A stretch of DNA of 64,000 nt from a candidate division Kazan bacterium RIFCSPHIGHO2_01_FULL_44_14 (GTDB lineage: Bacteria; Patescibacteriota; Kazan-3B-28), in the NCBI GenBank assembly GCA_001771185.1, contig METB01000001.1:631200-695199 (forward strand), written 5' to 3'. Positions 8,957 through 43,342 of the stretch are shown here, piece by piece; position 1 is the first letter of the stretch, and every line of letters begins with the position of its first letter. The notes under the pieces were generated by a model, which saw only the letters and a list, made by a program, of their open reading frames with translations, did not search any database and had not been told where the DNA came from. The position numbers and the translations under genes are program-made.

Positions 8957-9495
8957 ACGAACTGGCGGATAAAATTAGCAAGGCCATTGAAGTACTACAG
9001 GGTGAATTAGCCGGTATCCGAGCTGGACGAGCGAGTAGCAATCTGGTTGAAAATTTATTAGTGGAGTCCTACGGTAGTAAAATACCACTAAAACAAGTGG
9101 CTAGTATCACTGTGCCTGACGCTCGGTCTCTTGCCATCCAGCCATGGGACAGGGCTAACCTGGCTGGGATTGAACGGGCGATTAGTCAGTCGGAATTGGG
9201 TTTGAACCCGGTTAATGACGGTACAATGGTGCGGTTGAACATTCCGCCATTATCAACCGAACGGAGAGATGAACTAATTAAACTGATTAGGCAACGCGCT
9301 GAAGCGGCCAAGGTGACAATCCGAAATCTGCGTCATGAGGCGATGGAGGGGATTAACCATCAAGTGAAAGATAAGGCCATTTCAGAAGATGAAAGTAAGC
9401 GGTTGCAAAAAACAGTACAGGATAAAATCGATCAAGCTAATGCGCGAATTGAGCAGGTGTTAGCCGACAAAGAGACAGAAATTAAGACCGTTTGA
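8950..9495 (+). CDS. frr: Ribosome recycling factor
   Basis: ...LQGELAGIRAGRASSNLVENLLVESYG... Its start overlaps the tsf stop. Confidence 0.9.
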   Translation: MLNELADKISKAIEVLQGELAGIRAGRASSNLVENLLVESYGSKIPLKQVASITVPDARSLAIQPWDRANLAGIERAISQSELGLNPVNDGTMVRLNIPPLSTERRDELIKLIRQRAEAAKVTIRNLRHEAMEGINHQVKDKAISEDESKRLQKTVQDKIDQANARIEQVLADKETEIKTV

Positions 9496-10187
9496 TGAAT
9501 CGGGACATACCCCAACATATTGCGTTTATTGTGGATGGTAATCGGCGCTGGGCGAAAGAGCGCGGTTTGCCAGTGTGGGAAGGCCACATGCAAGGGATGG
9601 AGACAATGGAACGAGTTTTGGATTGGTGCGATAAAGCGGGCGTAAAATATGTCACGACTTATTTATTTTCAACCGAAAATTGGGGACGGGGTGAGCAAGA
9701 ATTAAATTATTTGTTTGGTGACATTTTTACCAAAGCATTCAAAGAAAAATTTCCGCGTTTGATTGAACAAAATATTCGGTTCAATATTTTTGGCGAAATC
9801 GATCGGTTTCCGGAAAGTATGCGCCGAGGACTAATCAATCTGGTGGAAAAGACCCGAGCTAACACGGGCTTGGTCTGGAATGCTTGTTTAAACTACGGCG
9901 GACGAGCCGAGTTGGTGCGAGCGGTTCAGCAAATTATAAAGAGCCAAATGCCATCAGAGCAAATTACCAAACAAACTATTGCCGACAATTTATATTCCGC
10001 TGGAATACCAGACCCAGATTTAATTATTCGAACTAGTGGCGAACAACGATTGAGTGGATTTCTGTTGTGGCAAGGTTCTTATGCGGAATTATATTTCCCT
10101 GAAGTTTATTTTCCGGCTTTTACCAAGGCCGATTTAGAACAGGCCTTGCAATGGTATGCTGACAGGGACCGGAGGTACGGAAAATAA
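9492..10187 (+). CDS. uppS: Undecaprenyl diphosphate synthase
   Basis: HIAFIVDGNRRWAKERGL ... RTSGEQRLSGFLLWQ. It has an ATGA overlap with frr. Confidence 0.9.
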   Translation: MMNRDIPQHIAFIVDGNRRWAKERGLPVWEGHMQGMETMERVLDWCDKAGVKYVTTYLFSTENWGRGEQELNYLFGDIFTKAFKEKFPRLIEQNIRFNIFGEIDRFPESMRRGLINLVEKTRANTGLVWNACLNYGGRAELVRAVQQIIKSQMPSEQITKQTIADNLYSAGIPDPDLIIRTSGEQRLSGFLLWQGSYAELYFPEVYFPAFTKADLEQALQWYADRDRRYGK

Positions 10188-12584: not shown

Positions 12585-12651
12585 CCCAGTAGAAGAAATT
12601 TGATTGCGCTTTGCGCCTTAATCTACGATATATCAAATTTTCTCTACTGGG
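12585..12651. repeat. F-family hairpin element, copy 1 (cccagtagaagaaatttga ... tcaaattttctctactggg)
   Basis: This is an imperfect ~19-bp stem. Copy 2 at 16210-16279 carries a compensatory G/C swap (tttga/tcaaa vs tttca/tgaaa). It lies just upstream of the greA promoter. Confidence 0.65.
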
Positions 12652-12766
12652 TTGACCCCGTTTAAAATTGCCCACCGAAGTGTCTGTCATGTAAGACAAG
12701 GCAATAGTGCCATGCGCTCGTTAGTGATTCGAAAAAAGTCGCCGTGGTGGTGGATTTCTAACGGGG

Positions 12767-16033: not shown

Positions 16034-16209
16034 TTAAAAGTTAAAGGTGAAAAGTGAAAAGTTTAGGTACCTCTTCGATTCGCTTCACTCACTCAGAGAA
16101 TATTTAAAGATAACCTCTTCCCTGTCACAGACCCTACGAAGCTTTAGTGAAGTAGGGCTAACCCGCTAACCTGCTTCCCTGCTTACCCGCTTTTTCTTAC
16201 GGGGTTGAC

Positions 16210-16279
16210 CCAGCTAGAAGAAATTTCATTGCGCTCTGCGCTGATATCCTACGGATATATGAAATTTTCTCTACTGGGT
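16210..16279. repeat. F-family hairpin element, copy 2
   Basis: cccagctagaagaaatttcattgcgctctgcgc...atatatgaaattttctctactggg, followed by gggttgact, which overlaps a -35-like hexamer. Confidence 0.65.
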
Positions 16280-40526: not shown

Positions 40527-41404
40527 TGAAACGAAAAGACATTTTTAGAATTGTAATTGTGAGCGTTGCCATACTAGTAATAAGCGCTGATTGGGTTTTT
40601 CCAGTTTTGCCAGCTTCGGCTGAAATTATTACTGGGGGAGGACCGAGTGTTTGTAATAGTGAAGATTGGCAAAATTGGCAAAAGAAGATAGAACAAAATG
40701 CCAAGGCGATTGTGGCAAAGCTAGAGGAGTTGAGGGAAAAGACAATTGCAGAATTGGAACCGGTACTAAAATCAACTCAAGAACAATATAACGACTTGAA
40801 TGAGCAGGCCGTAATATGGTTGACTAATTTAAAAGCTAAACCAAGGGGATCAATTGTGAATGGAAGAATTTCGTTGATTGGTCGGCAGTATCTTCCTTCG
40901 GAAATGAGAAATCGATTGGCTATTATAGGTACTAAACTCACAGAACTTTCGATTGCACTTCGTCAAAAGAAAGATGCCGATTATTTTTCGGGTCCATATG
41001 CCGAGTCGGAGCTTGATCCTTATGCCAAGCAAAAAAGCGCTTTAATTCAGGAAGCTGGTGGGTTGGTGCCTCGTTATTTGCAGTCCAAGGTTATTTTGGA
41101 AACGGCATATGCGGTAACGGAAAAAGCCGGAGCATACAATAGTGGATGTTGGTTTTTTAGTGGTCCAATAACAAAAAGTAGGGATAGTAAAGTGGATGCT
41201 GGAAAAACTTTTTATAAATTGATGTATATGTATCAACCGATTGGAAGCTCGAAGAGTGGTACGGAGCGCTATTCGTATAGTGAATGGCAAAAAGCTCGAA
41301 ATAAATTTAATGTGTTATCTCGTCTAAACAATACAACTTTTGGAGCCCACTGGGATGTAAGCAACTTTCGGGGAAGTTTTAAGAGGGTCTTTGGGATTGA
41401 TTAG
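40526..41404 (+). CDS. Secreted hypothetical protein
   Basis: It has a signal peptide. The family was not recognised. Confidence 0.4.
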   Translation: MKRKDIFRIVIVSVAILVISADWVFPVLPASAEIITGGGPSVCNSEDWQNWQKKIEQNAKAIVAKLEELREKTIAELEPVLKSTQEQYNDLNEQAVIWLTNLKAKPRGSIVNGRISLIGRQYLPSEMRNRLAIIGTKLTELSIALRQKKDADYFSGPYAESELDPYAKQKSALIQEAGGLVPRYLQSKVILETAYAVTEKAGAYNSGCWFFSGPITKSRDSKVDAGKTFYKLMYMYQPIGSSKSGTERYSYSEWQKARNKFNVLSRLNNTTFGAHWDVSNFRGSFKRVFGID

Positions 41405-41608
41405 TTGTTCTCCCGGGGTGGGGATAACTTTTTCAATAAAACTTGATTAATTCAGGATAGGGGACTGGGGATAACTCACCTGGTTTACTGATATAAAGAA
41501 TAAACTATTCGCTTCTATGGCGGATAATTTTTGGTTTATAGGTAAAGGGTTGCTAGATGTAATCTTAGTGGGGTACAATAAAATCGTTGTGGATAAATGT
41601 GGGGATAA

Positions 41609-42052
41609 GTGGAGGAATATGTGGATAATGTTTTTATCGGTGAATATACGCATGTACTAGACAGCAAGGGCCGACTTGCTATTCCTGTTAAGTTTAAAAA
41701 ATTGTTAACCAAAGGTGCGGTAGTGACCAAGGGGTTAGATGGTTGTCTTTTCCTTTATACCGAATCCGAATGGGCGAAGTTGGTGGCTAAGCTTAACCAG
41801 ATGCCCATTTCTCAAGGTAATGCGCGGGCATTCGCTCGGTTGATGTTAGCGGGAGCCATGCCGGTAACCTTGGACGCACAGAACCGCATCAATTTACCAA
41901 ATTATTTGATTGCCTTTGCTGGATTGAAAACTACTGCCGTGTTGGCTGGTCTAATGAATCGTCTGGAAATCTGGGACACCAAGAAGTGGGAGACCTACAA
42001 AAAGAAGACCGAGCCAGAGTCCGAGAAAATCGCCGAGCAGTTGTTTATTTAA
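41609..42052 (+). CDS. mraZ: Transcriptional regulator MraZ
   Basis: It has duplicated SpoVT/AbrB-like halves (DSKGRLAIP...). The SD ggagg lies 5 nt upstream. Confidence 0.9.
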   Translation: MEEYVDNVFIGEYTHVLDSKGRLAIPVKFKKLLTKGAVVTKGLDGCLFLYTESEWAKLVAKLNQMPISQGNARAFARLMLAGAMPVTLDAQNRINLPNYLIAFAGLKTTAVLAGLMNRLEIWDTKKWETYKKKTEPESEKIAEQLFI

Positions 42053-42053
42053 A

Positions 42054-42177
42054 AATCTTAATCCGTGAGTAATCCGAATTTATTTCGGATTACGAACCCC
42101 TCGAAAAGGGGAGGCAGTCCCGGCAAGCCGGGATGTCGGAAGGGGAAAAACCTGAATAATGGTTTTGCCCCTCCGAG
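42054..42177 (+). repeat. H-family structured element, copy 1 (between mraZ and rsmH)
   Basis: Stems gtaatccgaa/ttcggattac, tcccggc/gccggga and ggggaaaaacc/ggttttgcccc. Copy 2 keeps the same stems with different sequence (compensatory changes). Confidence 0.7.
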
Positions 42178-42336
42178 GATAGTTTAAAAATTAATTCCCG
42201 TTTATGTGGCCGATAACTTAACACAATTAGTTATCTAGCTATTATCCGCAACTTTTCACCTCCAACAACTTAGTTTACCCACCCCTGGGCAAACAAAAAA
42301 ACAATCTGAGTTGTCGGCCACATAAAAATATTAACA

Positions 42337-42459
42337 ATCTTAATAAGTGAGTAGCCCGAATTTATTTCGGACTACGAACTCCTCGAAAAGGGGAGGCAGG
42401 TCCGATTTATCGGACTGTCGGAAGGGGAAAAACCTGAATAATGGTTTTGCCCCTCCGAG
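42337..42459 (+). repeat. H-family structured element, copy 2 (ends 8 nt before the rsmH ATG)
   Basis: gtagcccgaa/ttcggactac, gtccga/tcggac, ggggaaaaacc/ggttttgcccc. A 16-bp inverted repeat (42203-42218 and 42309-42324) lies between the two copies. Confidence 0.7.
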
Positions 42460-42466
42460 TTGAATT

Positions 42467-43342
42467 ATGGAAAATTTCACCCATCAGCCCGTTCTGACTG
42501 ATGCCGTGATGGAATATTTGGCGCCTCGCCCGGGACAGACCCTTGTGGATGCCACATTGGGACTAGGCGGTCACGCCAAAGCGATTCTGGAACGGTTGGG
42601 GGGAATTGGAAAACTTGTCGGCATTGATCAAGATGAACAGGCCTTACAAATTGCAAGCAAAAACCTTAGTTCTTACCAAAATCAATTGGTTTTGGTTTAC
42701 GGCAATTTCCGTGATCTTGGCCAGCTTGTTGAGAGCCACGGATACGGAAGCGTTGACGGAATATTATTTGACCTCGGTGTCTCGTCTCTTCAGTTAGACG
42801 AGGGCACACGAGGTTTTTCTTTTAACAAATCAGCCATTCTAGATATGCGGATGGGAGTGGGCGAGTTGACTGCCGAGGAGGTAGTAAATACTTATTCGGA
42901 AGCGAAATTGGTTCGTATCTTACGGGAATATGGCGAGGAGCCACGAGCCGAGCAGATTGCCGAACGGATAGTAGAAGCCAGGAAATATCACCCGATACGG
43001 ACTACCGACGAATTGGCTGATATCATTGGCGGTTACCGAGGAGGAAAGATTAATCCGGCTACTCGGACATTCCAGGCCATACGCATTGAAGTGAATGACG
43101 AACTGACTGCTTTGGAACAGGCATTGCCACAGGCAGTTGACTTGTTGAAACCAGGCGGACGGTTGGCGGTAATTTCCTTCCATTCATTGGAGGATAGAAT
43201 CGTCAAACACTTCTTTAAAACTTTAGCCACTGGGGGGAGCATCCGGCTTCTCACCAAGAAGGCAATTATGCCTTCTTGGGAGGAGCGGAAGAGCAATCGG
43301 CGAGCGAGAAGTGCCAAACTCCGAGTAATCGAAAAAATTTAA
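42467..43342 (+). CDS. rsmH: 16S rRNA (cytosine1402-N4)-methyltransferase
   Basis: It has the SAM-binding motifs DATLGLGGH and DLGVSSLQLD. Confidence 0.9.
   Translation: MENFTHQPVLTDAVMEYLAPRPGQTLVDATLGLGGHAKAILERLGGIGKLVGIDQDEQALQIASKNLSSYQNQLVLVYGNFRDLGQLVESHGYGSVDGILFDLGVSSLQLDEGTRGFSFNKSAILDMRMGVGELTAEEVVNTYSEAKLVRILREYGEEPRAEQIAERIVEARKYHPIRTTDELADIIGGYRGGKINPATRTFQAIRIEVNDELTALEQALPQAVDLLKPGGRLAVISFHSLEDRIVKHFFKTLATGGSIRLLTKKAIMPSWEERKSNRRARSAKLRVIEKI

Follow-up and report, generated by a model that had tools for sequence, protein, structure and literature searches.

The DNA analysed here, referred to below as the window, is a stretch of 64,000 nucleotides (nt) from a candidate division Kazan bacterium (RIFCSPHIGHO2_01_FULL_44_14; contig METB01000001.1, positions 631,200 to 695,199). 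It carries mraZ and rsmH on the + strand, with a spacer of 414 nt between them. Candidate division Kazan is a lineage of the candidate phyla radiation, and the best matches of the window's MraZ are Kazan proteins with 90–99% identity. A preliminary description of the sequence had singled out 406 nt of the spacer (42054-42459) as a structured non-coding region with two covarying copies of one element, and had proposed a cis-regulatory RNA controlling rsmH and the dcw operon. The region is indeed structured (the folding z of the whole spacer is −9.5), and we find it to be composite: it consists of two copies of a repeat of ∼ 125 nt, here named E, and of a junction-specific element, the core, that lies between them. 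The coordinates of all features are given in Table 1.

As had been noted, the copies form a direct repeat with shared blocks. They are 129 nt long and 87% identical (88% in a MAFFT alignment), and two shared blocks, CCTCGAAAAGGGGAGGCAG as well as GTCGGAAGGGG...CCCCTCCGAG, are each present two times and no more across the 64 kb, with none expected from shuffled sequences. A covariance model of E, run on the window with filters off, recognized only these two copies; the next best match scored 18 bits. Each copy folds into four consecutive hairpins (P1 to P4), with energies of −55.6 kcal/mol (z = −5.3) for copy 1 and −52.5 kcal/mol (z = −5.7) for copy 2. The observation that the stems differ in sequence yet remain paired holds in full for the third hairpin (TCCCGG/CCGGGA versus GTCCGA/TCGGAC), which has three compensatory pair changes and is completely paired in both copies. 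It holds less well for the first hairpin, where there is one compensatory change but a C·A mismatch leaves copy 2 with nine of ten pairs. The P3 variant of copy 2 (GTCCGATTTATCGGAC) is identical to P3 of a copy between eamA and cysS in another genome (L129; related loci are referred to by such numbers). Coding potential, in the form of open reading frames (ORFs) of 38–40 amino acids in the copies, was considered and rejected: the changes are non-conservative exactly where the stems covary, and within the family the differences in hairpin length are not multiples of three.

The same fold is maintained throughout a family. In an alignment of 36 distinct copies on a covariance model named R1 (not to be confused with the purine block R1 discussed below), 94.5% of the cells of the structure are paired and 25 of the 36 pairs show compensatory changes, so covariation is abundant beyond the two copies in the window. 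The covariation score of 0.339 compares with 0.117 for shuffled alignments (none of 500 reached the observed value) and with at most 0.10 for slid partners. The signal also strongly favours one strand, GUGAG…CUCCGAG, which is the + strand of the window. Its paired positions hold 60 G·U against 5 A·C combinations, and RNAalifold assigns it −55.6 kcal/mol compared with −43.2 kcal/mol for the complement; single-sequence folds concur. One strand of E is under selection to fold into four hairpins. No Rfam family matches E. A search of the whole window with Rfam 15 at the gathering score returned one tRNA and nothing else, a search of region 41300-42900 at E-value ≤ 10 gave three chance-level matches only (mir-785, mir-965 and a Na+ aptamer), and a search of 11 related loci gave no family. 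Nor did we find in the literature a described structured repeat from the candidate phyla radiation or Patescibacteria.

E is dispersed. A degenerate pattern, scanned against one genome per GTDB species, located it at two places in the complete Kazan genome CP011216 (S1→E→infB and mraZ→E) and at four in OY968788 (infB→E, eamA→E→cysS, frr→E→uppS and rpsR→E→efp). Five matches outside Kazan (one each in Acidimicrobiales, Thermoplasmata and Verrucomicrobiales and two in Nonomuraea) were dismissed as chance, the rest of the element being absent. A second pattern gave more than 119 loci of 41–72% GC, a lower bound, in JGI metagenomes, and several contigs carry two or three copies. Of the 80 matches listed from the metagenomes, 15 are no more than 65 nt away from a true contig end, which is what one would expect if assemblies break at repeats. 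The hosts comprise candidate division Kazan (genomes of ∼ 0.6 Mb), Candidatus Aminicenantes and unidentified high-GC bacteria. The neighbouring genes are unrelated to one another (S1-infB, infB with an unassigned partner, eamA-cysS, frr-uppS, rpsR-efp, secY, rplV, yqeY): no Pfam family occurs in more than two of 45 downstream genes, and no transposase, tnpA, tnpB/TnpB or IscB was seen among the ∼ 100 neighbouring ORFs examined. The pattern had no match in IMG/VR, and the whole spacer had none in a blastn search of plasmids and phages. Presence/absence polymorphism can be followed at frr/uppS, where the two genes overlap by 1 nt in the window and are separated by ∼ 160 nt, including E, in OY968788. 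The overlap in the window (TGATG, 9490-9497) suggests translational coupling of the two genes. Many non-coding copies, unrelated loci and presence/absence polymorphism together mark E as a dispersed repeat.

Comparison of mraZ-rsmH junctions, which were fetched from relatives by exact-protein look-ups, revealed a rapid turnover of E at this site. In Kazan GW2011_GWA1_50_15 (L001/L018; MraZ 90% identical) a reverse-complement E directly follows the mraZ stop codon, fragments come after it, and no copy precedes rsmH. Three further loci, L008 (MraZ 99%), L010 and L028, have one reverse-oriented E at the junction, and the spacers of L007, L141, L142 and L144 (MraZ 73–79%) have none. The genes flanking the L008 junction are 96–98% identical to the window at the DNA level, whereas its single E is inverted and 77% identical, with no second copy; in L028 the flanks are 95% and the inverted E 87% identical. 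Flanks so nearly identical around differing E copies make the spacer a hot spot of replacement and inversion. E has been retained, with compensatory changes, across species at eamA-cysS (L013, L129) and at mraZ (L001, L008, L028). Contig L003 (1-4061) joins mraZ to infB through E; since the complete genome has those E copies at separate loci, L003 probably arose through chimeric assembly or through recombination. Downstream of the full reverse E in L001 (3560-3640) we observed scrambled pieces of the element, a forward 3′ end (GTTTTGCCACTCCGAG) and then a reverse P1 half, which indicates past rearrangement between E copies. Two of the relatives that lack E fill the spacer with short tandem-like repeats (GAGACGAGAGACGAGAGATGAGAGATGAGAAAC in L141, 2150-2260; CTGCAAATAGGCAAATCAGCAAATCTGCAAATG in L144, 1950-1990).

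These comparisons bear directly on the idea of a single riboswitch or attenuator, controlling rsmH and the dcw operon, in which the two copies would be aptamer-like domains in tandem. Within the window this is an attractive arrangement: both copies lie on the sense strand, both are highly structured, and copy 2 ends 7 nt before an rsmH ATG without a visible Shine–Dalgarno sequence, much as the preliminary description had stated. That proposal had been made to depend on the element recurring at the same junction in close relatives, where sense-oriented copies do not occur and E is antisense or missing. It had also been made to depend on covariation beyond the two copies, and this is abundant in the family. 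The many unrelated neighbour genes, the mixed orientation and the lack of gene-family enrichment are not those of a gene-specific leader, and neither an Rfam riboswitch nor the mraW motif was matched even at E-value ≤ 10. In relatives without copy 2, rsmH is equally devoid of a Shine–Dalgarno sequence, so that the lack of one characterizes the lineage rather than the arrangement seen here. The comparative data thus already contradict a tandem riboswitch, which we regard as highly improbable, and do not support a dedicated tandem cis-regulator of rsmH.

What is conserved at the junction is the core. It is found in all nine relatives down to a MraZ identity of 68% (L145) and is absent at 66% (L146), and its box (ACAATTDG…TTCACCTCC) occurs only at 13 mraZ-rsmH loci out of 146 loci. 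The inverted repeat that had been noticed between the copies, with its spacing of 90 nt, was confirmed and slightly extended; its arms constitute a closing helix that is 92.6% paired, with compensatory changes in 5 of 11 pairs (score 0.419 versus 0.191) and with U·G pairs falling on the sense strand. Inside it, a small hairpin has a CCCC loop and a stem in which compensatory variation is seen as well (ACCC/GGGU, ACCU/AGGU and UGUC/GACA, compared by eye), and an invariant UUCACCUCC(U/A)A resembles the 3′ end of 16S rRNA, that is, an anti-Shine–Dalgarno-like sequence. The core also contains the best sigma-70-like site of the region, TTAACA-16-TATTAT, pointing at rsmH; the −10 hexamer is conserved, and a good −35 hexamer is present in the window and in L008, L028 and L141. 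The suggestion of a cis-regulatory RNA for rsmH and dcw thus survives in part: a conserved, structured sense-strand element does exist at the junction, but it is the core and not the pair of copies. We infer that the core serves rsmH and the dcw genes as a promoter/leader module.

The closest known counterpart is the mraW RNA motif (RF01746), which precedes mraW/rsmH in Actinobacteria and is a candidate cis-regulatory RNA. Both are conserved structured sense-strand elements, and both occupy the position directly before rsmH where the dcw cluster begins. The core comes from a different phylum and has another sequence and another architecture, with a long closing helix, a conserved box that is unpaired and a hairpin with a C-loop; it also has an internal promoter-like site, and the mraW covariance model does not match it even at E-value ≤ 10.

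Alternatively, the core could be a device that works at the DNA level, either an invertible promoter or an operator to which MraZ or some other regulator would bind. Inverted repeats of 18 bp do enclose a 90-bp segment holding the best promoter-like site, and the most conserved word of the core, TTATCCGCA, reads GCGGATAA on the minus strand, like the boxes clustered upstream of mraZ. However, the interior has the same orientation, from mraZ to rsmH, at all 13 loci, which makes an inverton unlikely, and the core holds a single GBGGATAA word and no GTGG repeat array, so that the case for a MraZ operator within it is weak. The arms tolerate U·G and not A·C, as an RNA helix would, their sequences differ between relatives while complementarity is kept, and the interior hairpin covaries as well. 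We consider a DNA-level device unlikely.

Table 1. Features of the mraZ-rsmH region in the window. P1 to P4, hairpins; R1, R2 and Y, blocks of the three-block module.
Feature	Position	Strand	Remarks
GTGG-type direct repeats, four copies (GTGGATAAAT GTGGGGATAA GTGGAGGAATAT GTGGATAATG)	41589-41630	+	period 10-12 nt; overlap the mraZ start
mraZ	41609/41621-42052	+	PF02381; listed ORF start GTG 41609, relatives suggest GTG 41621
E copy 1	42049-42177 as direct repeat, 42052-42180 as E	+	reads GTGAG...CTCCGAG; model match 131 bits, fold, family alignment
E copy 1, P1	42069-42078 / 42084-42093	+	
E copy 1, P2	42097-42101 / 42107-42111	+	
E copy 1, R1 purine block	42104-42115	+	
E copy 1, P3	42117-42123 / 42128-42134	+	
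E copy 1, P4	42136-42152 / 42161-42176	+	R2 paired with Y
Core	42201-42326	+	junction-specific conserved element
Core, closing helix arms	42201-42218 / 42309-42326	+	18 nt, 94% complementary, 90 nt apart
Core, promoter-like site	42218-42223 / 42240-42245	+	TTAACA, 16 nt, TATTAT; 10/12 matches
Core, conserved box ACAATTAG...TTCACCTCC	42223-42263	+	
Core, hairpin with C-rich loop	42277-42290	+	
Core, A-rich tract	42291-42306	+	
E copy 2	42331-42459 as direct repeat, 42334-42462 as E	+	orientation as copy 1; model match 124 bits
rsmH	42467-43342	+	PF01795 in orthologous loci

Between P2 and its 3′ end, E contains three related blocks: R1, A(n)G(m)AGGCAG, which is followed by the hairpin P3; R2, GUCGGA-A-G(m)A(n), which is followed by a loop; and Y, U(n)C(m)UCCGAG. 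R2 pairs with Y to give P4, and R1 is the mirror image of R2. The lengths of the G-runs match across lineages (3/3, 4/4, 5/5, 6/6, and 4/5 in the long type A form described below), and the A-runs vary together from 0 to 6. The R1-R2 mirror identity is 10.0 of 14 positions, compared with 9.40 ± 0.18 for permuted partners. A direct-repeat relation, which would allow alternative pairing, fitted worse (best direct alignment 7.9 versus mirror 10.0) and was discarded. A mirror Hoogsteen block, a purine block and an inverted-complement pyrimidine block in this order correspond to the textbook design of an intramolecular triple helix, predicted to be of class I (purine motif) on the folding strand and of class III (pyrimidine motif) on its complement. 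The short loops (1–6 nt) usual for intrastrand triplexes are not present, the R1-R2 linker being CAG, a hairpin of 12–26 nt and GU.

The BoxC/PIT/TMECO repeats of E. coli, which are multi-copy and intergenic, linked to genomic instability and without known function (PMC4666352), provide the nearest precedent (Holder et al. 2015, PMC4666352; Hoyne & Maher). Like them, E is short and non-coding and has three consecutive blocks on the same strand whose mirror-plus-inverted relation is the one that an intramolecular triple helix requires; the pyrimidine-motif arrangement comes automatically with the complementary strand. E and the BoxC-type repeats are alike tied to loci that are rearranged or variable, and no function has been assigned to either. 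E shows no sequence similarity to the TMECO consensus (CCCTCNCCC-N3-6-GGGNGAGGG-N3-GGGNGAGGG), however, and its block order is reversed. The purine blocks, joined by a 3-nt loop in BoxC/PIT/TMECO, are joined in E by a covarying hairpin of 16–26 nt, and E has extra conserved hairpins (P1 and P2) and A·A-U-type positions. The hosts differ also, being E. coli and other Proteobacteria in the one case and candidate division Kazan, Aminicenantes and unidentified high-GC bacteria in the other, and for E the triplex is a prediction.

Taken together, the data are best explained by a lineage-specific leader/promoter core of rsmH with an insertion of a structured, probably mobile repeat on either side, a reading to which we assign a probability of about 65%. 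In a Kazan subclade, the core would keep rsmH and the dcw genes that follow it apart from mraZ and would set the expression of these genes. Its sense RNA comprises a covarying closing helix of 13–20 bp, an invariant single-stranded box ending in UUCACCUCC and the small CCCC-loop hairpin. E, which is gained, lost, replaced or inverted between close strains, would be a non-autonomous mobile or recombining element, propagated or recognized as a folded single strand, rather than a dedicated regulator of rsmH. Because both copies are in the sense orientation here, the mraZ-rsmH transcript and any transcript from the core promoter would carry very stable structures. Copy 2, which abuts the rsmH start codon, would probably affect translation only as a side-effect, and such an incidental effect is possible in this genome.

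Several points weigh against this interpretation. For the core, promoter activity is a prediction, the −35 hexamer is poor in L001, L007 and L142, and a transcript that starts at this promoter could not form the closing helix. For E, no clear terminal inverted repeats, clear target-site duplication or transposase were identified for Kazan-type copies; similarity between the ends (TAATCCGTGAG versus TAATCTCGGAG) is weak and seen in some copies. Copy 1 is flanked on both sides by the 9-bp TTTAAAAAT, which is low-complexity sequence. The placement of E is not random either: in 8 of 10 Kazan copies the folding strand is antisense to both neighbouring genes, and the other strand begins 3–6 nt past a stop codon. 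Retention at orthologous junctions fits function equally well as selfish persistence. With regard to the triplex, the CGGAG/GGAGGC part of the mirror relation was imposed by our search patterns, so that only the inner positions count as evidence, and the triplex is a prediction from the relation between the blocks. Finally, purine-motif triplexes form in DNA and not in RNA (PMC4666352), and for E a folded single-stranded DNA is therefore no less plausible than an RNA.

Some of the same observations could be accommodated if E were instead a family of functional small structured RNAs or modules, each copy having a promoter of its own that drives transcription in the GUGAG direction. The 3′-terminal strand (…CCCCUCCGAG) would then be locked in the three-strand P4/R1 module, guarding the 3′ end, and the RNA would work either in trans or locally, in the latter case as an antisense or insulator element. 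The strong covariation, the preponderance of G·U over A·C (12:1) on one strand, loop and junction sequences conserved from 40% to 72% GC, and retention at orthologous junctions with compensatory changes all agree with this idea. In most short-type copies an A/T-rich −10-like hexamer (…TAAT, TATAAT or TATTAT, identified by eye) lies 2–4 nt 5′ of P1, and copies are at least tolerated within essential operons (rplV-rpsC, secY, S1-infB). However, no −35 element for a private promoter and no consistent terminator were seen in the copies inspected, and the copies inside operons are sense in some cases and antisense in others. High copy number and contigs that break at the element in Aminicenantes are typical of repeats; E is moreover absent from orthologous junctions and is replaced or inverted between strains that are ∼ 97% identical. 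We hold a small-RNA family to be a rather doubtful alternative, if a more serious one than the others considered here.

E also has longer relatives. The most abundant of these, type A, belongs to Candidatus Aminicenantes and is ∼ 300 nt long, with a covarying closing helix of its own. The type A unit contains the E module and folds with ∼ −170 kcal/mol (contigs L024, L030, L051, L065, L084, L097 and others). Its copies are > 90% identical between unrelated loci, with several per contig and many at contig ends. Within the closing helix a 6-bp stretch varies yet stays complementary, and tandem G·A mismatches occur at the helix base. A likeness of type A to hammerhead, twister or group II domain V, looked for by eye, was not supported and had no Rfam match. 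Another form, type B (L082, L124, L127 and ∼ 10 truncated loci), starts after (T)TGAC and ends in …CTCCGAG-TTGAC, after which unrelated sequence follows; TTGAC could possibly be a 5-bp target or duplication, or a cleavage-site motif.

These forms raise the question of whether E derives from an IS200/IS605-type element (PATE-like), its fold being needed by a Y1 transposase or as a TnpB-type guide-RNA scaffold. Hairpins near both ends without clear terminal inverted repeats, the folding of one specific strand, and type B, bounded by TTGAC on both sides with variable sequence right after it, would all suit such an origin. Against it, neither tnpA nor tnpB was present among the neighbouring ORFs examined, the Rfam IS605-orfB and HEARO models did not match, Kazan-type copies lack TTGAC flanks, and type A, with its covarying closing helix, is unlike separate left and right transposon ends. 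An IS200/IS605 derivation therefore appears improbable to us. Among other small, structured, intergenic and multi-copy repeats that occur in both orientations, REP/BIME, ERIC and miniature inverted-repeat transposable elements (MITEs) resemble E in being polymorphic (presence/absence) between strains and in breaking assemblies. E differs from them in the conservation of sequence and structure across phyla, in its compensatory evolution and strong single-strand bias, and in that no terminal inverted repeats, certain target duplications, partner transposase or RAYT were found for it.

As far as Rfam 15 and the literature show, E and the core have both not been described before, and the functions proposed for them here are putative. 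More speculatively, E and its ∼ 300-nt Aminicenantes relatives might represent a new phylum-spanning class with an intramolecular triple helix at its heart (Hoogsteen block, variable hairpin, purine block and pyrimidine block), acting as a triplex-sealed small RNA or as folded single-stranded DNA for an unknown mobilization machinery. The same conjecture, which we hold only tentatively as a whole, would make the core a new cis-regulatory RNA of dcw that presents, ahead of a 16S rRNA methyltransferase gene, a sequence mimicking the 3′ end of 16S rRNA (UUCACCUCCU). What looked like a tandem riboswitch before a cell-division operon is mostly a pair of repeat insertions, yet the repeat belongs to a family that is absent from Rfam and that combines unusually strong structural covariation with a built-in triplex-type block arrangement. 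Should the triplex form, E would be among very few natural bacterial triple-helix elements with evolutionary (covariation-type) evidence. The family could also shed light on the way in which streamlined genomes accommodate or exploit repeats of this kind within essential operons. The core offers a handle on the regulation of the dcw cluster in uncultivated Kazan bacteria.

Upstream of mraZ, the GTGG repeat array lies just 3′ of a promoter-like site (41550-41579), and 6 of the 16 GBGGATAA matches in the window cluster at 41420-41628 on the + strand. This arrangement is kept in all relatives. The MraZ-binding repeats of Bacillus subtilis are GTGG[A/T]G with a 4-nt spacer, and the array in the window looks like a putative MraZ operator of the same kind. 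It is similar to the MraZ-binding repeats at Pmra, with a period of 10–12 nt as against GTGG[A/T]G-N4 in B. subtilis; the core differs from these repeats in having no array, only one GCGGATAA word on the minus strand. A second, palindromic repeat of ∼ 65–85 nt (CCCAGTAGAAGAAATTT…AAATTTTCTCTACTGGG) occurs in the window at 12586-12652 and at 16191-16279, where TTGAC is found on both flanks, and in L028 at 1250-1315. It resembles a MITE. The L028 copy sits inside a hairpin upstream of mraZ, a position at which the window has none.

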